The notes under the pieces: model-generated
Database searches by the model: none
Seen by the model: the letters and a program-made list of their open reading frames with translations, nothing else
Told to the model about the DNA's origin: nothing
DNA from: Ferroacidibacillus organovorans
Lineage (GTDB): Bacteria; Bacillota; Bacilli; Alicyclobacillales; SLC66
DNA length: 35,699 bases
Assembly (NCBI RefSeq): GCF_001642725.1
Contig: NZ_LSUQ01000008.1
Location: 62,001-97,699, forward strand
Reading direction: 5' to 3'
Translations under genes and position numbers: made by a program
Shown: positions 11,274 to 29,421 of the stretch, one piece after another
How the letters are laid out: each line of letters begins with the position of its first letter
Position numbering within the stretch: position 1 is the stretch's first letter

Positions 11274-11281
11274 TCCCCTCC

Positions 11282-12199: not shown

Positions 12200-12206
12200 C
12201 CTCTCC

Positions 12207-13517: not shown

Positions 13518-14281
13518 CCATGACCACCCCCTTTTGACGTTGTATTCGAACCCGTGGAACCCGTCTTAGGTGGCAACGTGGTTACGTGCGTCGTAGACAC
13601 TATGCCGTTCGCTGCGGGTAACGTCGACGGTGAATTGGCAAGCGGAATGGATCCGGGGGCCGCGAACGAGTCGTTTTGCGGGATCAGCGCCACTTGGACG
13701 TTGTTCTTCAGCACCGCAGGTGCAAGGATTTTGTAGTTTTCTTCACTAACGAAGATGAGTAGCGCCGTGGGTGTTCCCCCTTTAGCTGGTTGGAGTACAT
13801 TCAGCACGGGGACCGGTTCGATTGTCGTCAGTGTCTGCGTCGTGCCATTTTGTTGGGGCACCAATAACGCGATCTGCTCACCCGGATTGACCACCGACGC
13901 GAGGGGGCTTTGCACAGGCAGCGACATCAACATCCCAGTTTGCCCGGTGCGCTCTGTGTACTGGGTCAAAAAGGTCGAAAAGCTGCCACCTGAAGGGTTC
14001 AAGTCCCCAGCCGTAACGGGATCCCCTTTTGGCACAGTGTAGGAAAGATAGTGTCCAATAACCGCAGACTCATTTGTCGCTAAGCCTGCAATGCCACTGG
14101 TTTTCGAAACCGTCACCGTGGTGACATCACCCGCTTCGATTCGTGTGTAGGGGTACAACGTGCGAGTCGAGACGACGACGGTTTCCGTGTTTAGCATTCT
14201 CAAGAGCGCGAATGATCCGATGGTACCGGCCAGCACGGCGCAGAGTGCGCCAAGTACAAAGGAGAATGTACTTTTTCTCAC
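13514..14281 (-). CDS. cpaB: CpaB/RcpC-like SAF-domain protein
   Basis: N-terminal TM. VVVSTRTLYPYTRI...VIGHY...VPKGDPVTAGDL SAF pattern and VNPGEQI RcpC pattern. Confidence 0.8.
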   Translation of the reverse strand: MRKSTFSFVLGALCAVLAGTIGSFALLRMLNTETVVVSTRTLYPYTRIEAGDVTTVTVSKTSGIAGLATNESAVIGHYLSYTVPKGDPVTAGDLNPSGGSFSTFLTQYTERTGQTGMLMSLPVQSPLASVVNPGEQIALLVPQQNGTTQTLTTIEPVPVLNVLQPAKGGTPTALLIFVSEENYKILAPAVLKNNVQVALIPQNDSFAAPGSIPLANSPSTLPAANGIVSTTHVTTLPPKTGSTGSNTTSKGGGHG

Positions 14282-15504
14282 TTTGAGATCACCTCCCGTA
14301 ACGTTCCAAATCGCAACTTCCGTCGCCTATGCTCCGAGACAGGCGTTACGCGAAGCGCACCGAGCAAATGGTCTAGTGCATCGGATACATTTCGACTCCC
14401 GGCAAGTGGCGAAGCGGTCATGATGTCGCGGTACAAGCGACGGTCTTCTGGGATATGCACCACGTCCGACGTAACGTGTGCCTCGTCCAACAGACGAAGG
14501 GCACGCCGATGTTCTGAAATACCCTTTCGAATTCGATTGACCGCAACGACCACGCGCTCTGGCATTTTCATGTGACGCACCAGTTCGTACTCTTCGAGAA
14601 ATCGCTTGAACGCCATCCATTCCGGTGTCATGACAAACACCACGCGATCCGCCAACTCAAGCGCCGTGTACGTGGAAGACGTGGATGGACTCGTGTCAAT
14701 GAGCGTGAAGTCAAAGGTTCGTCCAAACTGCCCGACCACCCGGCGTAGTATCCCTTCGTCCAAACCATCCCGCGCCCGACCACTCGGCAGCAAGTACCAG
14801 TCATCCACTTCGACAAGGGATTCCTTGAACGCAGCCTCATCCATTTGTACGGGTAGTCGCGTAAAGTCGTCTGCCGTCATGGCGGCCGATAGGTGATGGA
14901 TGGATTGCAGATTCCCCTTGGGATCAAGGTCAATAACGCCAACCGTCATCCCCTGCCCTGCAAGTGCGCGGGCCAGGAGCGCCGTCAACGTGGATTTGCC
15001 TACGCCCCCACGGGCGCTGTGAATGCAAACGACCCGTCCGCGCATCGGCGGGTTCGGGTCGTCAGATGGAACCGTTTTTTCATTTGCACTGGGTTGAACA
15101 TTCGGCTTGGCCGGTCGGTTCCGTTTCAGAATGGCTTCCATCGGGGACACCGTCGCACTTGAGGTGGGTTCCTCCTGTACCTCTGATTCACGAATCCACC
15201 GTTTCAGGTAGTCTATCGGCAATGGGTAAGTGACCACATCAACACATCCGAGTTGCTTGGCCGTTTGGTACACCGATTCGCCGTCCGAAGTCCCCACATA
15301 AATAAATGGACAGGCAAGTGCCTGTTCTTTGATCCGCTCTACCCCCGGTGAGTTTTGTCCAACCAGAACCAATTCCACAGCAGTCAAGTCGATTTGCGCC
15401 AACTGATCCTCATGGTCCACCGCGTAGAGTTTCAGACCCGACCGTTCTGCCGCTTTGACGGCCGCCGCGTGTTTCACTCGATCAAACTCCAGCAACAGAA
15501 GCAT
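14278..15504 (-). CDS. CpaE/TadZ-like protein (receiver-like domain + MinD/ParA ATPase)
   Basis: SARGGVGKST, VIDLDPKGN, LIDTSP, with a receiver-like N-terminus. Confidence 0.85.
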   Translation of the reverse strand: MLLLLEFDRVKHAAAVKAAERSGLKLYAVDHEDQLAQIDLTAVELVLVGQNSPGVERIKEQALACPFIYVGTSDGESVYQTAKQLGCVDVVTYPLPIDYLKRWIRESEVQEEPTSSATVSPMEAILKRNRPAKPNVQPSANEKTVPSDDPNPPMRGRVVCIHSARGGVGKSTLTALLARALAGQGMTVGVIDLDPKGNLQSIHHLSAAMTADDFTRLPVQMDEAAFKESLVEVDDWYLLPSGRARDGLDEGILRRVVGQFGRTFDFTLIDTSPSTSSTYTALELADRVVFVMTPEWMAFKRFLEEYELVRHMKMPERVVVAVNRIRKGISEHRRALRLLDEAHVTSDVVHIPEDRRLYRDIMTASPLAGSRNVSDALDHLLGALRVTPVSEHRRRKLRFGTLREVISK

Positions 15505-16639
15505 CTACGACTCCTCCTTCCATTCCCTGTCGATTGGGATCAACAAAACAGGCTGAGATTTGATCAACAATGGGCATCCACCACTTGCCAAAATTCGGGT
15601 CAAGCGTGACCAACGGCGTTTTCATCCGAATGGCATGAAACTGCCGTGGCTCGTGTGGGACGCAGACGACCTGTGCCTCCGTTATGCTGGTGAGTAAAAC
15701 CCCTGGTGTATGATGATTGACCAAGCAAATGGTCTTCCTGTCACCCCGTTCCCGCATGGCACGAAGTGTACGCCCCGTCCCGGTCATTTCCGGCCAGGTC
15801 ACCCAAAGCGTGAGATCTGCGTCGGGTATCAGTGAATCCGCCTCCTGCCGAGTGTCGAGGATGACTCGATAGCCTTGCGGCGGTTCGGACGCATAGACGT
15901 GCGATAGAAATGATTCATCGCACCAATGGGACAGCGTACCTGGGTTATCTTCCACCACCGCCGCTGGAAGTTCACTTTGATGACAGAGGGCAGCCACTTG
16001 CAGCGCAACAAAACTCTTCCCACAACCGCGATCCCCAAGGATACGCACGCGCACCGGGGATGGGTCTGGCCAAACGAACTTGCGCACGAGACGGGTGGAT
16101 GACGCCTGTCTAGCTGCGGATTTACCGTGTTCATCCTGGGCTTCTATCAAGGCATCAAACCGAGCCATGTTTGTCTCTGCGACACCACTCCTAAGTGGTG
16201 CCCACGTAAAGGGTTCATCCTTTGCGGAAAACACATCCACCAATTTGGGCGGCTCTGCGAGTCCGGTTTCCCCTCGTGACAAGTACATTGCGACGTCCTC
16301 GACGGAACGTTTGTGTTCAAGTAGTTTGTCAAGATCCTGCAAAACAAGTTCCTCCGCGACGAACAGAAAATCGTAAATCCCGAACACGCAAAGTTCTCGT
16401 TTGAAGTCCTCCGTTTCGTGCGCTGATGAACCGATGAACACAACGCGCGCACCCTTGTTGCGAACTCGATTCAATGCCTGCATCAACACATCTCGCTTGG
16501 CAAACATCCATTCGCAGACGACAAGTGTGTCCTCTGCGTGAAACTCGGTTTCCTCAATTTTCTGGGCATAGGCCAGCCAAACACTGCCTTTGTAGCGTTC
16601 TCGAAGATCGGATGGTAGCGCCAAATACAGCAAGGTCAC
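15482..16639 (-). CDS. Second, degenerate CpaE/TadZ-like protein (receiver-like + P-loop)
   Basis: GTG 16639 after GGAAGGAG. LCVFGIYDFL receiver-like motif, GDRGCGKS P-loop, ILDT. First gene of the tad operon. Confidence 0.6.
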   Translation of the reverse strand: MTLLYLALPSDLRERYKGSVWLAYAQKIEETEFHAEDTLVVCEWMFAKRDVLMQALNRVRNKGARVVFIGSSAHETEDFKRELCVFGIYDFLFVAEELVLQDLDKLLEHKRSVEDVAMYLSRGETGLAEPPKLVDVFSAKDEPFTWAPLRSGVAETNMARFDALIEAQDEHGKSAARQASSTRLVRKFVWPDPSPVRVRILGDRGCGKSFVALQVAALCHQSELPAAVVEDNPGTLSHWCDESFLSHVYASEPPQGYRVILDTRQEADSLIPDADLTLWVTWPEMTGTGRTLRAMRERGDRKTICLVNHHTPGVLLTSITEAQVVCVPHEPRQFHAIRMKTPLVTLDPNFGKWWMPIVDQISACFVDPNRQGMEGGVVDASVAGV

Positions 16640-16795
16640 ATTCTCCTTCCTGACGTACGGTGAATTTTGATTGAATGACGATGGATGACGTGTGTGAAGA
16701 AATCCAGGAGAGTAAATGCAAAAGAAGGTTCTAGCACGATGCCGGATATCCCGGCGAAACATTCAATGTCGCTTGGCCCACCTCCCATCACGTAC

Positions 16796-16849
16796 ACGGT
16801 ATCACGGAAAACAGGCGGTTCGGTGTCGCCAGAGTGCCAAAACTGTCCC
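16796..16849 (-). promoter_or_regulatory. Activator-box promoter copy B, upstream of tad operon
   Basis: Minus strand: GGGACAGTTT-TGGCAC-TCTGG-CGACAC-N21-TACCGT, with TG extended -10. Confidence 0.7.
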
Positions 16850-16864
16850 GGTGATCTTTGATCC

Positions 16865-18874
16865 CTAGGGGCCGGATACCCGAATGGTTGGGACCAATTG
16901 GCCCAGGCTCCCCAACTTCGGCAACGACTCAGTCGTATACATCCTGTTCCACGTCGGTTGGGATTGTTCATATTTCGCTGTCGCGTCCGGTATCTGATGC
17001 AGGTAGTACCATGTCGGGTATCCGAGCGTTTGCGCGAAATCCGCATCATTCCAAGTGACCGTGGAACCTTCTCCCGTGATGAACGAAACTGACGTCCCCA
17101 GGTGCGCACTGGATGCCCTGTCCCCACTTACATTCCACGCTGTCAGTTGGGAGAACGACTTGGGGACGCCTGTTGTGGCATATTTCGGAATGGATGTGTA
17201 CACCCAGCCAACCTCCGTTGCTGGCGGCGGAAATCCATTCCCATTCGGATCCCACACGGGTACGTCGCCTTGGTTAAATATCGTATCCGAAAGCAGGGGG
17301 AACGCCTTTGTCCAAACATTCGTGTCGCCATCGGGGTTGACGAGCTGGAAGGTCACATTGGCACGGCTTGGCATGTCGTGCGGGGAGCCGGTCCATTCCA
17401 GTCGAAATGCCACACCCCCACCTACTCGAACATAGATAGACGGGGAACGTGTGGGATTGCCATACGTGGGCAGCGCCTGGTTTCCGCCATCGGTGGATCC
17501 GTCCGAATACGCGTCCGAATTCTGCTGAGAAGCGGTTGGATTCGTCGGGGACCAGACATCCCCCGGCTGGCCGGGATCGTAGAAAAGGCCGGTCACCTGA
17601 AAATTGCTCAGATTGAGTGGGTAATCGTGATGATACGTGATTGGGCTGTCCACCCACTCAAATAGGGTACAGCCGTCACTGTCCGATGTCGTCTGTAATT
17701 GCCAGTGGGTGTCCGTCCACGTGAGCATTTGTCCGCCTGTTCCATCTGGAGACCAGTTGTACGAAAGCACTTCGTTTGCAGGCATGGGCGGAATCGTCGG
17801 GTTCGGACAAGTTGGACCACTCGGGGGTGATGGCGGAGTAGGTGGTGGCAACGGAGGCTGAGGCGGAGACGGGGCTTGAATCACCGTAAAATCTACGGTT
17901 GCCGAGGTCGCCGCTCGGTTGAACCAATCCTTGACCTCCAACTTGATCACGTAATGTCCGGGACTGAGGTTCTTCGTGTCGATTTCATTCGGTTGCGTAG
18001 ATCCCCCGTCCGTCGTTTCCACAAACGACGGGGGATACGTCGTCGCCCCGCCACCCTGCACCTCAACCATGGGCGCTCCATTCGAGGCATACAACGTTTC
18101 CCCATTGTACGGGGCTTTTCCCTGTAACGAGTTTTCATTGAAGCTTTCAGACGTGACGTCCACCCCACTGGCGTTCTTCACGGTAACCCATTCAAAGTGA
18201 TAGTTGGTGTGATAGGCTTCGATGAATGCGTGGTCCTTAAACTTGAGTGACTTTCCCTGTTGCACGCTGTCTGAACCTACAATGGTAATCTGCGCCTTGG
18301 GTGGATCGGTCGCGTATACGGGTTGGTTAAACCAATCTCCATTTGAATTAGGTACAAACGCCGCCCCGCTCATTTCGACAATTTGCGAGACGTTCGAAAC
18401 GGAAAATGGCTGTCCCGCACTATCTATAAATGTGGTGTTCCAGAGATGTGCAGTGACGTACGAAGGATCACCCTTGAGTGCGGCGATCCATTGCGATACC
18501 GTTGATTGACCCACCATCTTGTAACCGTTGTTTGAAGAGATTGGAACTCCGTCATGGCTAACGTGATCAAATCCCCATATGCCGCCTAGTGTGTCGTTGC
18601 CGTTGTAGATGGGGAGTCCATCCGCTCCGTACTTGTAATAGTCAAAATTTTACTGAATACTCTCCAATTCCGGGTCTGTAGTCGATTGAATGCGAAATTC
18701 TGTTCCAGCTGTGATTTGTCCATTTGGGATGATGGCCCCATCAGTACCCGGCGGATTACCCGTTCGAACAATATAGGCGAAAGCAGGAGGCGCATTCCAG
18801 AATGAAACCAATAAAATAGCGAGCGCCATCGCGCCCGCTAGACAAGATTCCCTGATTCGATTGGCCGATAACAT
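16865..18874 (-). pseudogene. Large secreted protein (about 669 codons) with Pro-rich linker, interrupted by one in-frame TAA
   Basis: ORF 18650-18874 (signal peptide ...PPAFA) and ORF 16865-18517 share a frame. Reading through TAA 18652-18650 gives continuous NFDYYKYGADGLPIYNGNDTLGGIWGFDH...YKMVGQ. Confidence 0.75.
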
Positions 18875-18901
18875 GTAGTCTCACTGCCCTTCATTCAGAA
18901 A

Positions 18902-20314
18902 TTAGTTCCCCCAAGCCGCTTGCCCGCTGCTATATTGAATTTTAGGCACGCCTCCGTCACTCCCAGGTGTCATGCCGATACTCGCAAACACGACATCGTC
19001 TTTTGGGTAGATGTAGGATGCATCCATTTCCGCGTGGCCCTCGGTCTTGACCCAGATTGTTTTGGGTGGTGATACGACTCCCCCATTGCTGGGGTCACGA
19101 GAGTCATATCCGGCAAATCCAGAAGTAACCGCCCATGTTTGACCGCCATTCACACTATACTCGGTATGGTTTCCAGTAGCATTGAACAACGACCCACAAC
19201 TCAATTCGCGAAGGTCCTGATCAGATAGGCTCGGCAATTGAAATTCTAAGTGCCCGGTGCTCTGGACACTGAACTGAATGGCATCTACCAAAGGAAACGC
19301 TAAGGACTGCCCCTTTGAAGCCATGGCTGCTGTCACATAATTGTCATGGGCGAAGGCCTTTTTCGCATCATACGGTTGAAACCATACTCGATACGTTCCA
19401 TTCGCGTTCTTGGAATAGCCGTGATACAAAGCAGACAGATTGGACATCATTTGCGCCTCGCCAGTACTCGTCAGCGTTCCATTTGCCAAGCCTTGATTCA
19501 ATTCCACTGCATTCGCCCAAGCGATAGTGCTACCGCCCGCATTCCAGGATAAATCACTGTCCGGGATACCCACATACAGTTGATACGCATGATCGACGGT
19601 CTCAGCATTCACAGAATCTGCTGAACCAAAATGGCTGCTACTGTCCGCAGTGAAATACCCTTTCTGCAACACCGCGTTCACGTATGGCCAGTCAGAAGCA
19701 CTCACATCATCAAACGGGTTGGAACTCGTAGCATCCGGCTGAATGTTCAAGGCATTCGCAAAGTCTTTTACCACCGTCAGTTTCGTCTCCGTAGGGGATG
19801 ATTCCGATGTAGTCATCGACCATGTCGTGCCATCCCAGGTCGATGTAATCCCTACCCGATTTAGTGCCTGCATCAAGTACCAGATTGGAATATACGAGGT
19901 AACAACGCGACCACTGGGATCCCGGTGGGCATAGCGCGGTGCGAAATCAACAGGTGTGCCGTTGATTTCAATACTCACATCGGATGAATTCGCCGAATCC
20001 TTCGGAGGATTCGTCAAGTCTGCATGCATGCCGCTTGGCAATACCAGATTCCAGTGATGTCCGTCCCAGGTGCTGCGGATATTCAACTCGGACAACACCT
20101 TGAACAGATACCAAATGGGCAACCAACTTGTTGGCTCTGACGTCGAACTCTCCGGGCGCACCAAGTGTGCCGGATTCGATGCGTCCTGTCCATTCAATAT
20201 CAAGCGGGTTGGAGCAGACTCTACAGCCTGAATGGTTTGGGCCCGTGAAATCGGTGCATACGTAACCAAACATGCGAACGCTGACGAAAATAAAACCATG
20301 GTCGATTTCTTCAT
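18902..20314 (-). CDS. Secreted cell-surface protein with duplicated N-terminal domain and SLH-like segment
   Basis: ATG 20314 after AAGGAGG, signal peptide. Two repeats TS(W/Y)xPIWYL...I(R/T)STWDG..W. PFDDVSASDWPYVNAVLQKGYF resembles SLH. Confidence 0.7.
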   Translation of the reverse strand: MKKSTMVLFSSAFACLVTYAPISRAQTIQAVESAPTRLILNGQDASNPAHLVRPESSTSEPTSWLPIWYLFKVLSELNIRSTWDGHHWNLVLPSGMHADLTNPPKDSANSSDVSIEINGTPVDFAPRYAHRDPSGRVVTSYIPIWYLMQALNRVGITSTWDGTTWSMTTSESSPTETKLTVVKDFANALNIQPDATSSNPFDDVSASDWPYVNAVLQKGYFTADSSSHFGSADSVNAETVDHAYQLYVGIPDSDLSWNAGGSTIAWANAVELNQGLANGTLTSTGEAQMMSNLSALYHGYSKNANGTYRVWFQPYDAKKAFAHDNYVTAAMASKGQSLAFPLVDAIQFSVQSTGHLEFQLPSLSDQDLRELSCGSLFNATGNHTEYSVNGGQTWAVTSGFAGYDSRDPSNGGVVSPPKTIWVKTEGHAEMDASYIYPKDDVVFASIGMTPGSDGGVPKIQYSSGQAAWGN

Positions 20315-20345
20315 GTTGTTCAACCTCCTTCTTCGCGTTATGACC

Positions 20346-20390
20346 AGACTATCACGGAAAAACGCAGATGGAGTGTCACACGAGTGCCAA
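20346..20390 (-). promoter_or_regulatory. Activator-box promoter copy A, upstream of surface-protein genes
   Basis: Minus strand: TGGCAC-TCGTG-TGACAC-N21-TAGTCT, with TG extended -10. Confidence 0.7.
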
Positions 20391-20447
20391 TCGCGTATTT
20401 CCCCCAATCTTGTGCTTGACCTCATAACTCTTGACCTGATACGGATT

Positions 20448-20491
20448 TGTCACTGCCTTGGCACCCCGGGCTAGAACAGGCGGACTATGCT
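20448..20491 (+). promoter_or_regulatory. Activator-box promoter copy E, divergent from A
   Basis: TGTCAC-TGCCT-TGGCAC-N21-TATGCT. Confidence 0.55.
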
Positions 20492-20631
20492 CAAAACATT
20501 CCAAACAATTCATATATGGAAAAGATTCACTCTGTCGAACAGCAAAGTCAAGTTTGGTACAGACAGTCACTACGTAGCATCTGAACCTTGTTTCACGGCT
20601 TATCCAATTCCTATCGAGGAGGGTCCCGCAC

Positions 20632-20865
20632 ATGAACTTATTCCCGCCTATATCCAAGGCATCCTGCCAACAAGTACATCAACAACCCGATGGCACAAAA
20701 AGAGTGACGCTGGGAGACAACAACGTCACCATCACCGTGACTTTCAACACGCCTTCACAGGATGCCATTGAGCGTTTCACACACACGCTTCATACCATTC
20801 TGATGCGCATGACTGACGAGGGGGAAACACCACCCGTCATTGACAAATCACCTCTCTCACCTTGA
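20632..20865 (+). CDS. Small hypothetical protein (77 aa)
   Basis: RBS GAGGAGGG upstream. Lies downstream of promoter copy E and converges on the arpU-like gene. Confidence 0.55.
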   Translation: MNLFPPISKASCQQVHQQPDGTKRVTLGDNNVTITVTFNTPSQDAIERFTHTLHTILMRMTDEGETPPVIDKSPLSP

Positions 20866-21321
20866 TGCAGTCCTTGTTTGCGAATCCTTCTCTTCCCAAA
20901 TGATCGCAAACTCACCACCTAGCGCCTCAAACAGCTTATGGATCACAACCACTCTCAGACGAAAAAAAGCCCGGCGTGACAAGTACATTGTTTCCCAAGC
21001 AATGGTGTTGTTTTTCTGTTCAAAATATTTCAACCGTACCAAGGCCATTTCTTCCTCCGTTAAGATAGATAGCGCATTTTCAATGAGTTCAATGTAAAAA
21101 AGCAGTGGCTGAATTTGCTGTTCTTCAATGATGAATCGCTTTTCTGTCGCATCATAGGTCGGATCGCTCACATCACCTTGCGAAAAAGACGGGATCGCCC
21201 TGAACGCAGAGCGCAGCCGTGGGTAGTCGTTCAATTGCGCGCGCAGGCTCTGCACACGACGCTTCCAGGATGGGTACACATACAGCCATCTTTCGATTTG
21301 CTGCATCCGAGGATCCGTCAT
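20857..21321 (-). CDS. ArpU/RinA-family phage-type transcriptional activator
   Basis: IERWLYVYP, SDPTYDAT, IENALSILTEEEMALVRLKYF and C-terminal sigma-region-4-like HTH (YLSRRAFFRLR...LFEALG). 154 aa. Confidence 0.85.
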   Translation of the reverse strand: MTDPRMQQIERWLYVYPSWKRRVQSLRAQLNDYPRLRSAFRAIPSFSQGDVSDPTYDATEKRFIIEEQQIQPLLFYIELIENALSILTEEEMALVRLKYFEQKNNTIAWETMYLSRRAFFRLRVVVIHKLFEALGGEFAIIWEEKDSQTRTASR

Positions 21322-21479
21322 TTCTCATCCGCCCACTTCGTCTGCCGCACGCGCCCTTTCACCTTGTGATACGCGTCGTGCCGCATCATGTTCTCGTACG
21401 CCTTCTGGCTCTGTGGGTATCGATGTGCAGGCTCAGTCGTGTTCCTCGTTTTCGTGGGCCGACCCTTCTCATCTCCCAA
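21318..21479 (-). CDS. Small basic hypothetical protein coupled to the arpU-like gene
   Basis: TTG start after GGAGG. Stop overlaps the arpU ATG (ATGA). YENMMRHDAYHKVKGRVRQ resembles small ORFs found before ArpU genes in Bacillota phages (from memory). Confidence 0.6.
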   Translation of the reverse strand: MGDEKGRPTKTRNTTEPAHRYPQSQKAYENMMRHDAYHKVKGRVRQTKWADEK

Positions 21480-21741
21480 GATCCGTCGCCTCCGTTTGCG
21501 TATATTTACTTTTGTAAACATTAACGAGATAAAAAAGTTCATCAAACGGCTTGTCCAACACGTGACAAAGCTGCATCGCAGCCTGAGGACTGGGATTGCG
21601 AAAGCCGCGCTCCAACTGGCTCACGTAGGCAATGCTGTAGTCGGCTGCTTGGGCAAGCTCACGCTGGGTAAAACCTTTCAAGATTCGTGCACGGGTGAAC
21701 GCTTCCGACTTGACACGGATTGGTCCTGACACCTTCGACAT
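21469..21741 (-). CDS. XRE/Cro-like HTH protein (possible excisionase/Cro)
   Basis: GFTQRELAQAADYSIAYVSQLERGFRNPSP...FDELF. Divergent from the repressor. ATG after GGGAGG. Confidence 0.85.
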   Translation of the reverse strand: MSKVSGPIRVKSEAFTRARILKGFTQRELAQAADYSIAYVSQLERGFRNPSPQAAMQLCHVLDKPFDELFYLVNVYKSKYTQTEATDLGR

Positions 21742-21765
21742 CGTGCCGCCTCCCATCTACACTTG

Positions 21766-21869
21766 TGTAAGGTCATCATAATCCGCATGATCTGGACCTG
21801 ACAACCGTATCTTTGATTACTTTTGATTACTTTTTCTCGTTGCGCATCTTGTTCATTGAATGGTATCAT
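21766..21869. promoter_or_regulatory. Divergent sigmaA promoters and operator region of the switch
   Basis: Minus: TTGTCA(21804-21799)-N18-TATGAT(21780-21775). Plus: TTGCGC(21840-45)-N18-TATCAT(21864-69) with TG. Tandem TTTGATTACT x2 (21812-21831). Imperfect IR TGTAAGGTCA/GGACCTGACA. Confidence 0.6.
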
Positions 21870-21902
21870 CGGCACAGGCTAAGGAGAGTAGGGTCGAAGT
21901 TT

Positions 21903-22493
21903 ATGGACGAGGCATTCGGCACTTGGTTGCGCAGGTTACGCAAGGAAAAAAAGATGAGTGTGCACGAGGTGGCGAAACGGGCAAATCTCACACCTGGGTA
22001 TATCTCAATGCTCGAAAACGGAAAGAGAAGACCCAAGGTCAGTACGCTGGCTCCTCTCTCCCAGGCGCTTGGCTTGGCTTATGGGGTTATGCTCCAAATG
22101 GCTGGTTATTTGGACGATCAGAACATGATTTTCGCCCATCGCCTACGGGCTGCTCGTATGGACAAAGAGATGAGTCCACACGACCTAGCAGAGCAATGTC
22201 ATCTGTCCGAGCGAACGATTGAACGCTGGGAGTCCGGCAACAGTCCACTGCCCGCCCGCGCTACCTTGGAACGCTTGGCCCGAGTGCTTGAGGTTTCAAT
22301 CGACCACCTCACGGGTGCACCAGACTTGCAGTCCATGGATCTTGGCGCATTGCTGAGCCAGGATCACATCTCCTACAACGGGATCCCTTTGAACGAAGAC
22401 CAACGAGCATTTGTACGTGATTTCATTCGCCGCACGCTTCAACTCTCCACGCCCTCCGTTGCCGATTTGCCTGAACCCGATGATTCGAATTGA
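21903..22493 (+). CDS. ImmR/CI-like repressor with two XRE HTH domains
   Basis: FGTWLRRLRKEKKMSVHEVAKR...ENGKRRP and FAHRLRAARMDKEMS...WESG...IDHLTG. C-terminal ISYNGIPLNEDQR typical of ImmA-cleaved repressors. Confidence 0.85.
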   Translation: MDEAFGTWLRRLRKEKKMSVHEVAKRANLTPGYISMLENGKRRPKVSTLAPLSQALGLAYGVMLQMAGYLDDQNMIFAHRLRAARMDKEMSPHDLAEQCHLSERTIERWESGNSPLPARATLERLARVLEVSIDHLTGAPDLQSMDLGALLSQDHISYNGIPLNEDQRAFVRDFIRRTLQLSTPSVADLPEPDDSN

Positions 22494-22840
22494 TCTATGG
22501 CGCCGCCCGTTTCCTTTAGTCGAGGATACAAAACATAACCGAGATGACGCAGGGTCTTCAAACACTTCGGAGCATTTGGATTATCCTCCAACGCCAAGCG
22601 AATTTTTCGGATGTAGACGTACAATTCGTCCCGTTGCACCATGCCCTGTTTTCCCCACGCGCGGTGAATCAACTCTTCCACAGTCAACGTCTCTCCCACA
22701 TGTAACGCGAAATAAACAAACAGGCGAAAAGCGATGGGCGTCAGGTATCGAATCTTCCCATCCTTCATAAGAACTGCGCCATTCAAGTCAAGATAACAAT
22801 CATCACCCAAATCTATCTGGCTATCCTCCAAGTTGCTCAT
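22439..22840 (-). CDS. Stand-alone OmpR/PhoB-type winged-helix DNA-binding protein (no receiver domain)
   Basis: LTPIAFRLF...LTVEELIHRAWG...LYVYIRKIRLALEDNPNAPKCLKTLRHLGYVL matches Trans_reg_C. Confidence 0.85.
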   Translation of the reverse strand: MSNLEDSQIDLGDDCYLDLNGAVLMKDGKIRYLTPIAFRLFVYFALHVGETLTVEELIHRAWGKQGMVQRDELYVYIRKIRLALEDNPNAPKCLKTLRHLGYVLYPRLKETGGAIDQFESSGSGKSATEGVES

Positions 22841-22910
22841 TTGCCATCCCCACTTTTTATGCAACCCTATCGAGGCGGGAAGGCGTGCACAGGGAGCGAG
22901 CCATTTTGAA

Positions 22911-23000
22911 ACGGCAACTGGCTGACAAAAGGCCGAAGTAAAAGACAGCCCGTAGTCCCTGTAGCTTTGCGTCCCCTACTTTCGCAGGGTTTGCCTTTTT
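22911..23000 (-). ncRNA. Cyclic di-GMP-I (GEMM-I) riboswitch
   Basis: Minus strand GGCAAACCCTGC-GAAA-GTAGGGGACGCAAAGCTACAGGGACTAC...TGTCAGCCAGTTGCC matches the GEMM-I consensus (GNRA-capped P2, GACGCAAAGC junction, CAGCCAGTTGCC 3' end). Lies about 70 nt upstream of the wHTH gene. Confidence 0.85.
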
Positions 23001-23030
23001 CGCGATACCTTGTAGTTGGTCATTCGTGTT

Positions 23031-24527
23031 TTACTCTTTACCGGATGGCTCCTCTGGAACACGCGCTCGAATGGACTGGGCAGGCCACGCAATCCTTCGC
23101 TCATTGTCCGAATAACGCGCGCAGACAGATTGACCACGTTCGATCAGTTCCTGAATCAGATCCTCACGTGCTTTCCAAGGCAATGGCGCAAGCTCTTCCC
23201 CAAACCATCCCACGCCACGGATGAAATGCTGTACCACGTTCTTTGCATCAGGGAACACCAGTTCAGATGACGACATGAACACCTCCACCTGTTCCAATCC
23301 GGCTTGTTTAAAATCTCGCGGTGCTTCATCAGGATGAAGTAAATAATCCCTTGGTTTCTCTTCCCGTTTTGCTGCCAAATCGAGGATCGGCGCGAACCAT
23401 TCTCGAAAGAAGGGTGCTGTGAAATCCATCTTCAAGGGATGCAAACTGGCGATGACACCGCCTGGACGCACCACCCGTTTCATTTCCTGTAGCGCCTCAG
23501 ATCGATTGGTAAAATGTAAGTACCCGACCCCAACCGCTATGTCGAACCGTTCCTCATCGACCGGCAACTGTTCCGCCTTTCCTTGACGAAAATCCACCCA
23601 GTCGATCTCCTGCCTTCTTTGCTTGCCTCGGGCGCGCGCAAGCATACCGGTCGACGGGTCCACCGCCACGACTGCGCCCGATGGACCCACGCGCTCCGCG
23701 AGACCAGCAGCGAATGTCAATACACCATCCGCACATCCCAGCTCCAGCACGCGCATACCTGCCTTTATACCCACCCATTCCAAAAAAGCCCGACGTTCGT
23801 CTATGGCGTTCGGCCAGACCATTCGATCCGTCTTGTCATAGTTGTTGAACAGATTGAACTGAGAGACGCAGAGTGTCTCCAGACGATACCGGAAATATCC
23901 AGCACGCTGTAAGGCATCCGTCGTTTTCTCTAGCACGCGACGCCCCTCATCCGTCAAACGGACAAAGCGATGTTCTCCCCGCTTCTCCAATTCGATATTC
24001 CCGAGTGAATAGGCGAACAAAACTTCCTCTCCCAGACTGTAATCCACCCAGGGTCGATGCCACGATCCACGCACATAATCGCGTTCGGGGATCTCCCCAA
24101 AATACCGAAGGGCGTTCAAGTTCTCCCAACAGGTCTCCAACATGTACAGTTGCATCAAAGTTGCAAATCCGTGGTCGTTGATAAAGTTCTCCACACGCTG
24201 CAACGCATCAAAGGCCATGGCTTCCGTGACATCCAGTTCACCCGTTTTCTGATGCGCTAAATTGACGGCCGCAGAAGCAGCCGTTTCGTATACTGCAATC
24301 TGTGCCATGCGCTCCGGCGCCGGTAAATCGCCAATTGCAAGGGCACGCTCTGCTTCCGTCCAATGGATGAACGCACACTCGCGGGAACGATCATGTAGGA
24401 ATTCGTGAATCTCCGGGTCGAATCGCGCGTTACCGTCAATTCCTGCAAGCCAAGGACTAATCACCAAACCTGCTGCCCAAAGTCTGTGCAAGGATTCTGT
24501 CAAGTCAGGGTAGATATACAAAGCCAT
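23031..24527 (-). CDS. Class I SAM-dependent methyltransferase (UbiE/Methyltransf_11-like) with about 230-aa N-terminal extension
   Basis: VLELGCADG motif I, VVAVDPSTGMLARAR, GKAEQLP...FD, EMKRVVRPGG. ATG 24527 after GGAGGGGG. Confidence 0.85.
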   Translation of the reverse strand: MALYIYPDLTESLHRLWAAGLVISPWLAGIDGNARFDPEIHEFLHDRSRECAFIHWTEAERALAIGDLPAPERMAQIAVYETAASAAVNLAHQKTGELDVTEAMAFDALQRVENFINDHGFATLMQLYMLETCWENLNALRYFGEIPERDYVRGSWHRPWVDYSLGEEVLFAYSLGNIELEKRGEHRFVRLTDEGRRVLEKTTDALQRAGYFRYRLETLCVSQFNLFNNYDKTDRMVWPNAIDERRAFLEWVGIKAGMRVLELGCADGVLTFAAGLAERVGPSGAVVAVDPSTGMLARARGKQRRQEIDWVDFRQGKAEQLPVDEERFDIAVGVGYLHFTNRSEALQEMKRVVRPGGVIASLHPLKMDFTAPFFREWFAPILDLAAKREEKPRDYLLHPDEAPRDFKQAGLEQVEVFMSSSELVFPDAKNVVQHFIRGVGWFGEELAPLPWKAREDLIQELIERGQSVCARYSDNERRIAWPAQSIRARVPEEPSGKE

Positions 24528-24913
24528 TCCCCCTCCGAGATTGTATAGTGAAGATTCCACACAATTCGCTAAATTCCTGTAACAAAGTGACATTTCATCA
24601 GACCCGGTTTGAGAAACCTGTGGTCTCAAACAGCTCTTTCGGGAATCCGTCTACTATGAAATGATGGTCCAATGAGTGAAACCTGTTTGTTATGTTTCGT
24701 GGATTTCCGAGGGGCGATGCGTGAAGTTTGGCGAACCTTAACGAATTTTAAGGTTCAAGCCGTTTCTCAAGTGCTATACTTTTTCTACCAGTTACCTTTT
24801 GGGGAATTGGCGAATGGCTCCATTCAAAAGAGAGAAGATTCATACAAACGGGTATTCAGTAGATACATAGGGCAGATCATAGAGATATCGCCTGACAAGA
24901 CAGCGAGTCAATC

Positions 24914-25339
24914 ATGGTTTGGGTGGGTGATGATGTGAGTGTACATATGCCAGAGGAAATCCATGGCGCCGTACAGCAACTCGTCGATACGTTTGAGACC
25001 AACGATCCGTTCCGTCTGAGTCGACTGCTGCACCTGCACCTATTGCCAGGTCGTACTCCAGCGGGAATATGGGGAATTCTGATGCGGTATGACAATGAAT
25101 CATTTTTTGGCTACGACATCAGTATTTCCGCTGACAAACAACGGATTTATATTGCACACGAGATTGGACATCTTGTGCTTCACGGTGACCATGCGCCACT
25201 TTTCCTAGAACTGGACGAACCCCGCCCCTCCGCTTTGGAAGCAGAGGCCCAGGCATTCGCCACTGATTTGCTTCAAGAGCCAGAACGAAGCCTCTTACAG
25301 TTGAACGAAAATTGGGTCTTGGGTCACTTAGGCCCCTGA
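24914..25339 (+). CDS. immA: ImmA/IrrE-family metallopeptidase (antirepressor); start may be 24947
   Basis: FETNDPFRL, QRIYIAHEIGHLVLH (HExxH), EAEAQAFATDLL. Confidence 0.85.
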   Translation: MVWVGDDVSVHMPEEIHGAVQQLVDTFETNDPFRLSRLLHLHLLPGRTPAGIWGILMRYDNESFFGYDISISADKQRIYIAHEIGHLVLHGDHAPLFLELDEPRPSALEAEAQAFATDLLQEPERSLLQLNENWVLGHLGP

Positions 25340-25615
25340 CCCCACTTTGTCTTCAAGAGCGCACTCTGCGTTGATTCCGTCCAACATCAGGTGCGCCACA
25401 AAGTTCGCAAAATCCCGAATTTCAGTTCCGCAGTTTTCGGCACACTGTGCCTCCCACTGAAGTAACAAGACGTGCTTGTCCTTGGATAAGGCGGCTTTCA
25501 ACTTTTCCCCCAACACATCCGGTTCTTCGCCGAGGCTAGCGTTTGATTGCAAATGCTCCTCATAGAAATCATCGATCAATTTCTCTGCCAACAGTTGCCG
25601 AGCCATTCCACACAT
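25328..25615 (-). CDS. Hypothetical acidic helical protein
   Basis: RBS GAGGAGG before ATG 25615. Possible TTGCTA-N18-TAAAGT promoter upstream. Confidence 0.55.
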   Translation of the reverse strand: MCGMARQLLAEKLIDDFYEEHLQSNASLGEEPDVLGEKLKAALSKDKHVLLLQWEAQCAENCGTEIRDFANFVAHLMLDGINAECALEDKVGSGA

Positions 25616-25689
25616 GCCCTTTTCCTCCTCACCCGCTTTGCTTGTCTGAGACTTTACCTCTGCGCTGTGCCACTTAGCAAGATCTTTGT

Positions 25690-25743
25690 GAGACACTTTT
25701 GGCACTCAGAGCGCACTTTTTCTCTGTTTTATCGAGATAAGAT
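25690..25743 (+). promoter_or_regulatory. Activator-box promoter copy C
   Basis: GAGACACTTT-TGGCAC-TCAGA-GCGCAC-N21-TAAGAT. Confidence 0.7.
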
Positions 25744-25764
25744 GCTATCACGGCATAAAAGGCG

Positions 25765-25796
25765 AGGCAGCGAGTTCAATCGCTGCTTTTTTGTTT
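25765..25796 (+). terminator. Terminator-like hairpin in leader of promoter C
   Basis: GCAGCGA-gttcaa-TCGCTGC followed by TTTTTTGTTT. Confidence 0.6.
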
Positions 25797-25821
25797 GCCG
25801 AAAAGGAGGTGAACTTCTTGA

Positions 25822-26103
25822 TTGCGAGACGCACCTGACGTGTATCGCTTCCTGCCGCCTGCATTCATCAAGCCTGCATTCCTGCAGGGCGTCCCGATTG
25901 AAGTCAATCCCGAGACATGGCTCGAAGGTACATTGAAGGCGAGTCAAATCCGTTTCACAATCCGTGACCGAGACACTTTTGGCACCCAGAGCGCACTTTT
26001 ATCCATGTTTTCAGGCGTACGATGCAAGCATGGATCAAAGGGACGAGGCAGCGACAACCAGTCGCCGCCTCGTTTTCGTTCCTATAAGGAGGCGTTCGCA
26101 TGA
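25822..26103 (+). CDS. Possible small hypothetical protein (93 aa)
   Basis: Strong RBS AAAGGAGGTGA at about 25802-25812. Stop overlaps the MTase ATG. However, the 3' half runs through promoter D and its hairpin. Confidence 0.4.
   Translation: MRDAPDVYRFLPPAFIKPAFLQGVPIEVNPETWLEGTLKASQIRFTIRDRDTFGTQSALLSMFSGVRCKHGSKGRGSDNQSPPRFRSYKEAFA
25970..26023 (+). promoter_or_regulatory. Activator-box promoter copy D (direct repeat of C, offset 280 bp)
   Basis: GAGACACTTT-TGGCAC-CCAGA-GCGCAC-N21-TACGAT. Confidence 0.7.
26043..26080 (+). terminator. Terminator-like hairpin in leader of promoter D
   Basis: ACGAGGCAGCGAC-aacca-GTCGCCGCCTCGT followed by TTTCGTT. Confidence 0.55.
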
Positions 26104-26897
26104 TTTCAAGTCCCATCAAGTGGCAAGGGGGAAAAGCCCGGCTGCGCCGAGTCATCCTCCCCCTCCTCCCCGAACACACCTGTTACGTGGAACCGTTCTT
26201 CGGGGCAGGCTGGATTTTCTTTGCCAAACCAAAGTCGAAGGTGGAGGTGATTTCTGACGTCAACGCCGAGCTCATTCAGTTCTATCAAGTCGTCAAGGAT
26301 GATTTGGAAGGGTTCCTTCGACAATTCGACTGGACGCTCTATTCGCGCGAGGAGTTTATCCGTGTCATGAACCGACGAAATGAAGAGCGCGATCCGCGTT
26401 TACGCGCCTACGACTTTTTCTATCGGGTACAGTCCCACTTTGGCGGAAAGTACAACAACTCGATTGATTGGGGATATGGCCGAGGCAAACCTGCCTTCGA
26501 CTTCTCTGCCATCCACGCCCGCATCGAAGCTGCGCACAAGCGGCTCTGTGGGGTCTACATTGAAAATCGTCCGTTTCATGATGTCATCCCTCGGTACGAC
26601 GGACCGGACACGTTCTACTATTGCGATCCGCCCTACTATGGCCTGACCGGATACCACCAACACCCGTTCACCAAGGAAGACCACCTCAAGTTGCGCGACA
26701 CGCTCGTAAATGCAGAAGGCAAATGGCTGCTCAGTATCAATGACCACCCAGACGTCCGCCGCTGGTACACCGACTTCTCCATGGAATCCGTGGATGTCCA
26801 CTATTCCATCAGTCGACAGAAGACCGGACGCAAATCCGGAGAACTGCTGATTCGCAACTACACACTATCTGAGCATCGCGAGGTGACCGTCCAATGA
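26100..26897 (+). CDS. Orphan DNA adenine methyltransferase (Dam/D12 class)
   Basis: KWQGGKA, YVEPFFGAG, EVISDVN, FYYCDPPYY, ELLIRNY. Confidence 0.92.
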   Translation: MISSPIKWQGGKARLRRVILPLLPEHTCYVEPFFGAGWIFFAKPKSKVEVISDVNAELIQFYQVVKDDLEGFLRQFDWTLYSREEFIRVMNRRNEERDPRLRAYDFFYRVQSHFGGKYNNSIDWGYGRGKPAFDFSAIHARIEAAHKRLCGVYIENRPFHDVIPRYDGPDTFYYCDPPYYGLTGYHQHPFTKEDHLKLRDTLVNAEGKWLLSINDHPDVRRWYTDFSMESVDVHYSISRQKTGRKSGELLIRNYTLSEHREVTVQ

Positions 26898-29239
26898 GTA
26901 ATCTGTCCCTGTCTCAGAAGACCAAAAAGCCCAACCCATTTACGTTTTACCGCATTGCCTTCCCATCCGAACACTCGGTATCGGCACAACAGGCGCACGC
27001 CTTCCTTCAATCGCTCTCCGGGATCCTGTGGCAAAAGCAAACACTCGGCATTCAACGTCCGCTTCCTCTTCGCTTCCTTGTTGTGAAAGAACCGGGCGAA
27101 TCGGTCACCCGGTTCTACCTTGGCCTACCCACGCTGCGCGACGAGGCCGTCCAGTCCGCGTTTCGCTCAGCCTACCCGCACGTCCATCTGATTGCAGAAC
27201 CAACGCCCACGTTTCTGACACAAAGCCTCGACCGTCGCTCGCTCGCCATCTCGTTTCGCAAAGGCGGGCAGGGTCTCGAACCCTGGTTGCCCCTGTCCTC
27301 TCATCGCGTCGGTGAATCCGGCGATCCCCTTGATCATTTGATGGATGCCATCGGATCGGATGTAGCCAGTCGCTGGGTTTTCGAAGTGTGGTTCACGCCG
27401 ATGCGCGATGCCAAGTTCCAGCGCACCCTCTTGAAGAAGGCCCAACCACCCGGAAGCAAGGGTACATCCGGGTTCTCCCTGTCCGAAGTGCTCGCAGAGG
27501 TCTTCGGAAAATCGCCGTTGCAAAAACGTCCAACACTGCCTGTCCCAGATCCCTATGCTGAACAAAGACCCATTGTTCGTTCGCGACTCCTGTCAAACCA
27601 GCGTCCGTTTCGCGTCTCCGTCCGCCTTTTGGCAAGCGGCTCCACAAGCGTAAGAGCACACCTGCACGCCGTGCTTGGGGCCATGGGCCACCTTCGAGAG
27701 GCAGGATGGATTGTGCCAAGCCGCATCACGAAACGTCGACTCGCCAAGGCCATGCATCAAGGCATACCCACACGCCCGATGTGGTGGACCTCTGGAGAAC
27801 TGGCCTCCTTAGTCCATCTCCCTGACAGTCGGCAACCCGGCTTTCGCTACGTGGCGACCGCGCAGGGACGGGTCCTCCCCCCACCCAAGTGGAAAAGCGA
27901 AGGTCTCCGGCTTGGCTGGTCCGACTTTCCGGGGAAGGAAGACCAAGCGATTCACATTCCGCTCGGTCAGGCGGCCAAGCACACGTTTCTTGCGGGTGCG
28001 ACCGGTTCCGGCAAAACCACGACCCTCCTGCAAATCATGTTGGGGTTGGTTGCCCAGATGCAGACGAATCCCGACACGGCACCCGGATTCACCTTCTTTG
28101 ATCCGCACGGCGGTGCGATTGAGCGACTGCTCGCCCACATTCCACCCAGCCTTCATCACAAAGTACATGTGATTCCACTCGGCCCGACCGAGTATCCACG
28201 TGGCCTCAACCTGTTTCGCATGGATCACCGAGATGACGCAGAGGCGATCACGGGTGAGTTCGTCACCACGTTGCAGGAACTGTGGCCTGGTTCCCGACCA
28301 CGTTCCGAGCACTATTTGCGCAATAACGTCCTGTCGCTGCTCCAGCAACCGCCCCAGACGGTGCTTGGTATCGCTCACCTGTTCGCAAACGAACGTTTTC
28401 GCCAAGAACTGATTCCGAAACTGCCGTCCCATCTGCAAGACTTTTGGATGCAGGAGTTCGCGGAGATTCGAAACATCGCCGACCACTTGGGTCCTATCTG
28501 GAACAAGCTCGGGGCGCTCACCACGTACCCGTCTCTGCGTCGCATGCTCGGCCAGACCAAGAGCGCCGTCGACACGCGCGCCGTCATGGACGAGGGAGAC
28601 ATCGTGCTCATCGATGGGTCAGGTTGCACCACCGATGCCATCAAGATCATCGCGGGACTGTACCTGATTGACCTCCACTTCACTTGCAAACGTCGACCCG
28701 AACACCGATCCCGCCTACATCTATTCCTCGGCGACGAGGCGCATCTGTACGCCGTCAATGTGCTGCAAAAAATTCTCGCGGAAGACCGCAAATTCGGCCT
28801 GTCCCTATTCCTGGCCACCCAGTACCTTGACCAATTGCCCGACCCGATCCTCGCCGGAATTCTCGGCAATGTCGGCACGCTCATCCTGCTGCAACTCGGC
28901 GGGCCAGATGCGGACAGGCTCACGCGGTGGCTGAAGCCGGAGGTCTCGGCGCGCCAACTGATGACTCTGCCTGAGATGCATGCGCTGGTACGCACCAAGC
29001 TTGAAGGCGGCGTCACGGAACTGTTCACCATGCAGAACCCGCTCGTTCCCGCTGGCCATGAAGAATGGGCAGCAGAGGTCATTGCCCATTCGGACCTTGC
29101 GGATGGACGGCCAGCGAACGAAGTGGATCAGGACATCGAGGCGATGTACGGTCGCTCCAAGGCGGCTGTCCAGGAACATACGATGCCCATTCGTCACTTC
29201 GCTTTTCCGCGTACTGAAGACCCGGAGGAACCATCCTGA
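26894..29239 (+). CDS. virD4: VirD4/TraD-like type IV coupling ATPase
   Basis: HTFLAGATGSGKTT, FFDPHG, LFLGDEAH, EDRKFGLSLFLATQYLDQL, ILGNVGTLI. Confidence 0.85.
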   Translation: MSNLSLSQKTKKPNPFTFYRIAFPSEHSVSAQQAHAFLQSLSGILWQKQTLGIQRPLPLRFLVVKEPGESVTRFYLGLPTLRDEAVQSAFRSAYPHVHLIAEPTPTFLTQSLDRRSLAISFRKGGQGLEPWLPLSSHRVGESGDPLDHLMDAIGSDVASRWVFEVWFTPMRDAKFQRTLLKKAQPPGSKGTSGFSLSEVLAEVFGKSPLQKRPTLPVPDPYAEQRPIVRSRLLSNQRPFRVSVRLLASGSTSVRAHLHAVLGAMGHLREAGWIVPSRITKRRLAKAMHQGIPTRPMWWTSGELASLVHLPDSRQPGFRYVATAQGRVLPPPKWKSEGLRLGWSDFPGKEDQAIHIPLGQAAKHTFLAGATGSGKTTTLLQIMLGLVAQMQTNPDTAPGFTFFDPHGGAIERLLAHIPPSLHHKVHVIPLGPTEYPRGLNLFRMDHRDDAEAITGEFVTTLQELWPGSRPRSEHYLRNNVLSLLQQPPQTVLGIAHLFANERFRQELIPKLPSHLQDFWMQEFAEIRNIADHLGPIWNKLGALTTYPSLRRMLGQTKSAVDTRAVMDEGDIVLIDGSGCTTDAIKIIAGLYLIDLHFTCKRRPEHRSRLHLFLGDEAHLYAVNVLQKILAEDRKFGLSLFLATQYLDQLPDPILAGILGNVGTLILLQLGGPDADRLTRWLKPEVSARQLMTLPEMHALVRTKLEGGVTELFTMQNPLVPAGHEEWAAEVIAHSDLADGRPANEVDQDIEAMYGRSKAAVQEHTMPIRHFAFPRTEDPEEPS

Positions 29240-29253
29240 TCTGTGCAACACGT

Positions 29254-29284
29254 CGGACAGGCTTGCGGACAGGGTTCCGGACAG
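29254..29284 (+). repeat. Three CGGACAG direct repeats at 12-bp period
   Basis: Copies at 29254, 29266 and 29278, in the gap between the coupling protein and the relaxase-like gene. Confidence 0.8.
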
Positions 29285-29421
29285 CCTTTCCTCCCGTCTT
29301 CCGTCCTACAATCGTCCTGACTGAATTCCAAATTTACCGCGCCGGACGTGGCTTCGCGGTCTCAGCGGTTGCGGGACATATTTCCGAATCTGCCGCGCCG
29401 CACAGAGGGAGGCAATACCGA

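Follow-up and report, generated by a model that had tools for sequence, protein, structure and literature searches.

Promoter boxes shared by Tad-pilus, surface and transfer operons point to a phage-type activator in an integrative conjugative element of Ferroacidibacillus organovorans

The 35,699-nt stretch of contig NZ_LSUQ01000008.1 from Ferroacidibacillus organovorans analysed here (assembly GCF_001642725.1, handled as G000; 3.03 Mb in 98 contigs), hereafter the window, represents most of an integrative conjugative element (ICE), as judged from its gene content. Five copies of a 44-bp promoter-like box (A-E) precede genes for a Tad pilus, surface proteins and DNA transfer, and a sixth, weaker copy (F) precedes pilin-like genes. 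We propose that a phage late-gene activator of the Ltr superfamily, represented by a 154-aa protein encoded in the element, has been reused as the master activator of the Tad pilus, surface and transfer operons, working like the SetCD and AcaCD activators; on the sequence evidence we put the probability of this reading at roughly 0.8. The original prediction had described the five boxes as activator-dependent promoters of a mating regulon, and to this we add a likely activator, a match of the motif to the layout of phage Ltr late promoters, the pilin copy, copies in satellite elements and a set of leader hairpins.

Promoter boxes and their confinement to mobile elements

All five sites were recovered at exactly the coordinates, on the strands and with the spacings first claimed for them. 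A relaxed pattern (CAC-N8-CAC-N21-TAnnnT) has five matches in the window, which are A-E and nothing else, while 300 dinucleotide shuffles of the window gave a mean of 0.15 and a maximum of 2 matches, and none of them (0/300) contained the strict pattern TG[GT]CAC-N8-CAC-N21-TAnnnT. The strict pattern occurs eight times genome-wide, five times in the window, twice in a second ICE (contig C73) and once in a satellite element (C56), so the predicted enrichment in the element, rather than a spread through the genome, extends to all strict matches in 3.03 Mb lying in mobile elements; with 19 other spacers (12 to 31 bp) the same pattern gives five genome-wide matches summed. Since the strict pattern was drawn from the sites themselves, the independent test is a weight matrix built from other genomes' sites (15 sites, taken from other genomes' loci only). 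Scanning the genome with such a matrix, the check proposed in the original prediction, placed A-E at ranks 1-4 and 8 among 14 matches scoring >13, the top 11 of which fall in the window element, the C73 element and the satellites C56 and C72, and the matrix also picked up site F. One relaxed-pattern match outside recognised elements (G000:C4:17508-17551, minus strand) is common to a second genome, G001, has a low matrix score and is probably due to chance.

The absence of a canonical -35 was borne out, the best match at 16-18 bp agreeing at 1-2 of 6 positions, and together with the confinement to mobile elements and the geometry of orthologous sites this argues for activator-dependent promoters of a mating regulon. 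The sequence G(G/A)GACA(G/C)TTTT upstream of B, C and D is real and corresponds to a degenerate third half-site in 11-bp phase, the final AC of which is kept in all five sites A-E. The claim that every copy points into an operon start is generally correct but loose for C, because D intervenes before the next long gene, and for E, because its target is a single 77-codon open reading frame (ORF) convergent with the activator gene. Boxes C and D (25700-26100) appear to be tandem copies of a unit made up of a box, a leader hairpin and a ribosome-binding site; a very short ORF at most lies between them, and the pair is retained in four related elements.

Boxes recur at orthologous operon starts in related Alicyclobacillales elements, where the spacer sequences have diverged. 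The closest named relatives of the window are Alicyclobacillus elements, and the elements with conserved box positions encode Ltr proteins that are 48-72% identical. A search with the half-sites only across nine related element regions gave 59 matches, which were followed by TAnnnT at 21 bp in 33 (one of which also has TAnnnT at 16 bp) and at 22 bp in five, mostly orthologues of C and D; of the remainder, one has TAnnnT at 19 bp only and 20 lack it anywhere at 15-27 bp. The spacer said to be always 21 bp is therefore so in A-E, but 22 bp also occurs in related elements. F-type sites with GATGCT are among the 20 matches lacking TAnnnT, and orthologous F sites have TAnnnT in 3/6 cases. Named-relative loci and genome-region loci overlap in content and were not summed. 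Among 64 genomes of the order, 41 are free of pattern matches, and all six that encode a close homologue of the 154-aa protein contain 6-11.

The same box accompanies a second ICE family (G040:C1:307000-366000, G051:C97, G041:C1 and G049:C26; L327-L342), which combines a different type IV secretion system (T4SS) with the common Tad/surface module. In G040 and G041 the box stands before the T4SS pilin, Tad and Flp operons. The activator candidate of this family is a 225-aa protein of no known family, encoded behind a repressor/Cro pair as in family 1, and a firm assignment to Ltr failed on weak profile matches. A GGDEF gene also lies close to the Tad genes in family-2 ICEs (L329:3711-4583).

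An Ltr-superfamily protein and the layout of phage late promoters

The protein family of the 154-aa protein aligns with the phage Ltr alignment over 128 columns (hhalign, 98.5%, E 3.2e-15), and a profile built from 15 phage proteins gives the protein itself 42.8 bits. Its predicted model is all-helical (pLDDT 78), with a phage activator and a sigma-r4-type protein as the best viral fold matches; PDB fold searches returned nothing significant that would speak for or against a Q-like or sigma-r4 fold, and the window protein, when used directly as query, had no relative in viral contigs. By sequence it is a member of the Ltr superfamily that falls outside both curated subfamilies and lacks the defining phage context, the window holding neither terminase (terS) nor virion genes. 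Nine element-borne Ltr proteins form one side of a supported branch (99/97) opposite phage and chromosomal homologues in a tree of 36 proteins, where the root is arbitrary, the element-borne proteins were picked by query similarity, G221 is without ICE confirmation and four of the nine 'prophage' rows are unconfirmed, so that the tree gives no direction for the transfer. Two genomes outside the order (G064 and G196) have Ltr relatives in conjugative regions, with a different 11-bp-phased hexamer and a -10 at 21-22 bp; this hexamer precedes the coupling-protein gene, together with a similar leader hairpin (read by eye in the two cases). Most of nine more distant chromosomal Ltr homologues have no box directly behind the gene.

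The layout of the boxes also occurs in phages, just downstream of ltr genes. Viral contigs scanned for TGGCAC-N5-TGGCAC-N21-TAnnnT gave at least 120 loci, 114 of them with at least 300 bp upstream and 67 of these distinct. A homologue of the window protein ends within 40 bp of the box at 24 of the 67 distinct sites among the matches listed, compared with 0/32 when the spacer is 19 bp (scanned to completion, 63 loci) and 1/67 for the bare repeat (Fisher p 2.5e-5 and 1.5e-7, respectively, with kin treated as independent though they are not). The phage spacers compared were 21 and 19 bp. Of 15 box-adjacent phage proteins tested, 12 pass curated cut-offs (nine RinA, three ArpU), and the 19 downstream phage ORFs chosen from 38 include four small terminases (terS) and four HNH nucleases. 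An unbiased spacer test of the bare repeat TTGGCAC in viral contigs showed no 21-bp peak (6/116 distinct), since hardly any of the repeats sampled in this way belong to Ltr sites.

Individual phages, including the characterised 80alpha and TP901-1, have the same arrangement. In 80alpha, TGGCAG-N5-TGGCAG-N21-TATTAT lies three bases past the rinA stop; TP901-1 has an 11-bp-phased array with N21 and TATACT behind alt; and Hayley has TGACAC-N5-TGTCAC-N21-TATTAT. In a Cohnella plasmid and in two phages of Geobacillus, the pattern is absent directly behind the Ltr-like gene. Activation by Ltr proteins depends on direct repeats that lie immediately past the ltr genes and give specificity (PMC3753634; here and below, papers cited by PMC number are drawn on from excerpts), and the 80alpha hexamers would be these published repeats, judging from their position in the 59-nt block described there. 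Alt binds at -76 to -32, as cited in PMC3152322, which is the span expected of four half-sites in the 11-bp/21-bp geometry. Proteins of the Ltr superfamily are small, at about 15-18 kDa, with a conserved helical DNA-binding domain at the C terminus. The candidate resembles the phage Ltr proteins (RinA, ArpU, LtrA, LtrB and LtrC; PMC3152322, PMC3753634) and Alt of TP901-1 in size, full-length profile and direct-repeat target, its gene ends an early operon behind a repressor/Cro switch, and the 11-bp phase and 21-bp spacing are those of 80alpha, TP901-1 and Hayley. It differs in belonging to a conjugative element with six dispersed promoters on both strands, where phages have one late promoter.

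Several observations count against Ltr as the activator. The 154-aa protein scores 22.6 bits for RinA (TIGR01636) against a cut-off of 31.9 and has no match to ArpU (TIGR01637), and 43 of the 67 phage N21 sites among the matches listed have no adjacent Ltr by the profile used. Unlike in phages, no box lies directly behind ltr, the nearest co-directional one (A) being ~470 bp downstream, past a convergent ORF. Four genomes (G040, G051, G049 and G062) have 4-10 pattern matches without a family-1 Ltr homologue; the clustered matches of the first three fall in other Tad-bearing conjugative elements. The family-2 Ltr candidate is weak (local hidden Markov model E 1e-7, hhalign 2-4%, no Pfam/PHROG match), and G049 has four boxes with a sigma-r4-type candidate only.

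Proposed cascade and alternative readings

The ltr gene is the last of a Cro-like - ORF75 - ltr run that is divergent, by layout, from an XRE repressor gene. Gene families and layout suggest that the repressor would keep this operon off until the ImmA-like protease inactivates it. Ltr could then bind hexamers in direct repeat, two or three of them along a single face of the helix, from about -61 to -34 and covering the -35 position, and, to judge from its phage homologues, let housekeeping RNA polymerase use the -10 21 bp downstream in class II style. In this way it would co-induce the surface proteins (A), Tad assembly (B), the pilins (F) and the DNA-processing/T4SS operon (C, D), and transcription from E toward ltr may limit ltr. 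A riboswitch for cyclic di-GMP (c-di-GMP) at 22909-23004 sits between a 532-aa methyltransferase gene and a winged-helix gene, a gene pair that is conserved in the ICE family, and may link mating to c-di-GMP.

The main rival to Ltr is this winged-helix protein (22439-22864), which, gated by the riboswitch, could itself read the 11-bp direct repeats. PhoB/OmpR-type domains read direct repeats, the protein has a PF00486 domain with the riboswitch upstream of its gene, and close homologues occur elsewhere in G051 and G049; the presence of the gene in every family-1 ICE with a fully seen switch region is a further point in its favour and against Ltr. However, the same sequence and geometry stand directly behind Ltr genes in phages, and the box-bearing ICEs of G040 and G041 have no winged-helix match at E <= 1e-12 with this query, an argument of moderate force because the family-2 Ltr candidate is weak. 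In G011 (L343) a box lies upstream of the methyltransferase - winged-helix pair, so that the winged-helix gene looks like a target, and we consider its product improbable as the box-binding regulator. A supposed C73 ICE without the winged-helix gene was dropped from the argument, as the orthologous element in G001 has the gene beyond the methyltransferase, past the contig edge.

It is very improbable that a host regulator, or the Cro-like protein or XRE repressor, binds the boxes as host-controlled promoters or operators. The Cro-like and XRE genes are indeed conserved beside ltr, some genomes have boxes without a detected close Ltr, and the weak C4 match common to G001 looks chromosomal, but the host chromosome is nearly box-free, 41 of the 64 order genomes have no box, and the lack of a -35 leaves little basal activity for a repressor to act on; XRE operators, moreover, are usually palindromic. 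The abundance of the bare TTGGCAC repeat in viral contigs, without spacer preference, could suggest recombinase arm-type or replication/transfer binding sites with an incidental TAnnnT. Against this, a -10 at 21-22 bp follows 38/59 half-site matches versus two matches at other spacers, the sites are internal and at operon starts, and the family uses a serine recombinase; the arm-site version was rejected on the fixed 21-22 bp -10 in related ICEs, and the reading as a whole is barely credible. Promoters of the sigma-54 type (-24/-12) come to mind because TGGCAC-N5-nnGC resembles GG-N10-GC, which C, D and F satisfy. As A, B and E (3/6) fail it, GG-N10-GC is not invariant and this reading was rejected; TTGC occurs in none, TAnnnT would be left without a role, family scans of the window proteins found no enhancer-binding ATPase, and the probability that remains is close to nil.

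Leader hairpins follow some of the boxes. C, D and the satellite boxes have a 9-bp stem and a T-rich run downstream, and an alignment of 10 related, hand-picked sequences shows two-sided changes in 4/9 pairs. No co-directional gene lies directly 5' of C or of the C56 box, and the hairpin would therefore act on the box transcript only. In phages, a terminator-like element is found <=180 nt from the -10 in 13/24 leaders among the matches listed, versus 8/120 shuffles, and also in 80alpha; no leader terminator was found at TP901-1, A, B, E or F. The phage element may simply end the early transcript. In 80alpha (L374:4222-4384) the -10 hexamer, 21 bp past the rinA repeats, is ~110 nt upstream of the published start, and a terminator-like hairpin follows ~85 nt past this -10, also upstream of the published start. 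The >155 bp between the RinA-binding sequence and the mapped start have been called unexplained, and the start was defended as primary (PMC3152322); a box-proximal -10 with a terminator could explain why RinA apparently acts from >155 bp.

An extended and rather doubtful version of the Ltr proposal is that Ltr proteins, fixed 21 bp before the -10, also carry RNA polymerase past the leader terminator like lambda Q, that one branch left the phages to run mating regulons including the Tad pilus, as a Gram-positive counterpart of SetCD/AcaCD, and that satellites pirate these through the box. With lambda Q, a terminator-like element early in the late transcript must be read through. Gram-positive conjugation operons can use separate antitermination systems (conAn; PMC8191782), and the likeness to conAn and lambda Q lies in the early position of a terminator-like element on the transcript, be it of conjugation or of late genes. 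Against read-through stand the lack of a leader terminator at A, B, E and F and the mapping of the published 80alpha start on RNA treated to remove processed ends (PMC3152322). Fold searches with the 154-aa protein gave no significant match to Q.

Among known systems, the arrangement is similar to SetCD of the SXT/R391 ICEs and AcaCD of IncA/C plasmids (PMC4542580) in having a candidate element-encoded activator under a repressor and a site over the missing -35 at many transfer promoters; it would work like these systems and is not a member of them. SetCD and AcaCD are heteromeric FlhDC-like complexes of Gammaproteobacteria, whereas here there is a single phage-type helical candidate with tandem hexamers in the Bacillota, and no FlhD/FlhC-like family was found among 45 window ORFs scanned in Pfam. 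In ICEBs1, the ImmR/ImmA pair consists of an XRE repressor and an IrrE/ImmA-type peptidase, and derepression directly opens one long operon; here, in contrast, an activator step would feed several separate promoters, including that of the Tad pilus. Ltr proteins are treated as phage late activators only in the excerpts of PMC5601072 and PMC7397523. Our literature search, with subscription papers mostly outside its coverage, found no Ltr-controlled conjugative element, and the literature examined, in excerpts, holds no Gram-positive SetCD/AcaCD-like master activator with a definable box. Master activators with a definable box have allowed the SXT and IncC regulons, along with the islands pirating them, to be mapped from sequence. 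If the Ltr proposal is correct, it would provide a Gram-positive counterpart whose signature (11-bp-phased hexamers, 21-22 bp, TAnnnT) can be searched for and already detects operons and satellites. The proposal would also describe a phage late-gene module rewired for conjugation, tie the Tad pilus to mating through co-regulation, and offer a precise model for the positioning on promoters of the RinA/ArpU activators, which are widespread but mechanistically unexplained.

Satellites, operons and neighbouring genes

The satellite C56 consists, in order, of the box, a leader, a coupling-protein gene, a Replic_Relax relaxase gene, o125 and a serine recombinase gene, without mating genes and without ltr. 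C59 and C72 are decayed versions, and box-bearing satellites also occur in G001, G008 and G048, with the coupling-protein gene mostly broken and a 22-bp spacer in G008 and G048. Satellite relaxases are 63-82% alike to that of C56 versus 50-55% for ICE relaxases, and being closer to each other than to the ICE they appear to be an old lineage that kept the half-sites. As the satellites keep both box and leader, there is a somewhat better than even chance that these small recombinase-relaxase elements are switched on in trans by a helper ICE; that many of them are decayed weighs on the other side, since the boxes may be inherited rather than used. SetCD and AcaCD also activate unrelated mobilisable islands (PMC4542580, PMC5704250), whereas the satellites here are related to the ICE (relaxases about 52% identical). 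Integrative and mobilisable elements with their own VirD4 coupling protein and MobC relaxase are known (PMC5704250), and C56 likewise encodes its own coupling protein and relaxase, along with a serine recombinase, and no mating-pair genes. The excerpts of that paper describe control by a helper regulator for Gammaproteobacterial elements only, and the box suggests the same in the Bacillota. Contigs C56, C59, C68, C69, C72, C46 and C45 hold between them no fewer than six large serine recombinase genes or gene fragments, which are closely related and in part arranged in tandem. The small ORFs o77 and o125 lie near the recombinase in satellites and are candidates for a recombination directionality factor.

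Table 1 Coordinates of boxes, leader hairpins, regulatory genes and operons in the window (HTH, helix-turn-helix).
Feature	Coordinates	Strand	Remarks
Box A	20346..20389	-	TGGCAC-N5-TGACAC-N21-TAGTCT; extended -10 TG; heads surface-protein genes; relatives keep site
Box B	16796..16839	-	TGGCAC-N5-CGACAC-N21-TACCGT; extended -10 TG; third half-site 16845-16850; heads Tad assembly operon
Box C	25700..25743	+	TGGCAC-N5-GCGCAC-N21-TAAGAT; third half-site 25689-25694; upstream member of tandem promoter-leader pair
Box D	25980..26023	+	TGGCAC-N5-GCGCAC-N21-TACGAT; third half-site 25969-25974; heads dam - coupling protein - relaxase - VirB4 operon
Box E	20448..20491	+	TGTCAC-N5-TGGCAC-N21-TATGCT; divergent from A; faces 77-codon ORF, antisense into activator gene
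Box F (new, weaker)	10412..10455	-	TGGCAC-N5-TGGCAC-N21-GATGCT; heads two Flp-pilin-like ORFs
Terminator-like hairpin and T run after box C	25764..25789	+	
Terminator-like hairpin after box D	26042..26077	+	Weaker T run; missed by terminator scan
Ltr-superfamily (RinA/ArpU-like) protein, 154 aa, proposed master activator	20857..21321	-	phrog_36 E 8.6e-14; TIGR01636 E 9.6e-5, below cut-off
Conserved 75-codon ORF (ORF75) between Cro-like gene and activator	21318..21545	-	No family match
Cro-like HTH_3 protein, first gene of activator operon	21469..21756	-	PF01381
Consensus-like sigma-70 promoter of Cro-like - activator operon	21775..21804	-	10/12; consensus match only
Double-HTH XRE repressor	21903..22493	+	PF01381 twice; NF041951 below cut-off; ImmR/cI-like label inferred from position and family
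Stand-alone OmpR-type winged-helix protein without receiver domain	22439..22864	-	PF00486
c-di-GMP-I riboswitch 5' of winged-helix gene	22909..23004	-	RF03167, 63 bits vs gathering score 59
ImmA/IrrE-type metallopeptidase, candidate anti-repressor	24914..25339	+	PF06114 E 2.6e-5; phrog_87
77-codon ORF (o77) behind box E, convergent with activator gene	20632..20865	+	Homologue in satellite C59
Small conserved ORF o125, divergent from box C	25328..25705	-	Common to ICEs and satellites
Surface-protein genes under box A	16865..20314	-	SLH-like exported protein 18902-20314; SLH match weak (E 0.004)
Secreted protein under box A	18650-18874 + 16865-18517	-	Split in two ORFs
Tad assembly operon under box B	10461..16762	-	426-aa unknown, CpaE-like ATPase, CpaB/SAF, TadA/CpaF ATPase, TadB- and TadC-like
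Pilin operon under box F	5797..10390	-	Flp-like pilins 10190-10390, 9870-10166; two pseudopilin-like ORFs, Ig-fold protein, prepilin peptidase
Transfer operon under C/D	26100..35699	+	D12 adenine methylase, coupling protein, Replic_Relax relaxase, C5 methylase, small membrane protein, TcpE, VirB4/TcpF-like ATPase, VirB6-like

The assignment of the window to an ICE follows from its relaxase, coupling-protein and VirB4 genes and from the serine recombinase gene that follows in orthologous elements. The VirB6-like gene is cut by the contig end; in relatives the operon is longer and also takes in a wall hydrolase-like gene and the gene of a large serine recombinase, and the recombinase of this ICE probably lies on C69. 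A search for att sites and element ends found none. The Tad genes of the window include CpaB, CpaE-like, TadA, T2SSF and prepilin peptidase genes. The assembly also holds a second, diverged ICE copy (C73/C63/C46/C28); VirB4 genes scoring over the cut-off and RinA-like genes number two each in the whole assembly. The pilin and pseudopilin labels had no library match and are presumed from the Flp motif and position, while the TadB and VirB6 labels were assigned by position.

Some further features of the operons and their surroundings were observed. The secreted protein split in two ORFs (16865-18874) has a C73 orthologue that is a single ORF of about 667 codons. The transfer operon contains both an adenine methylase gene (26100-26897, the first gene) and a cytosine methylase gene (30245-31573), and downstream of one phage Ltr box (L092) lies a gene for a comparable type of adenine methylase. 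The cargo side of the window (2555-4158 on the minus strand and 2-835 on the plus strand) carries a lone condensation-domain fragment, an apparently internally shortened MFS (major facilitator superfamily) gene, a DsbD-type gene and a DDE transposase gene.

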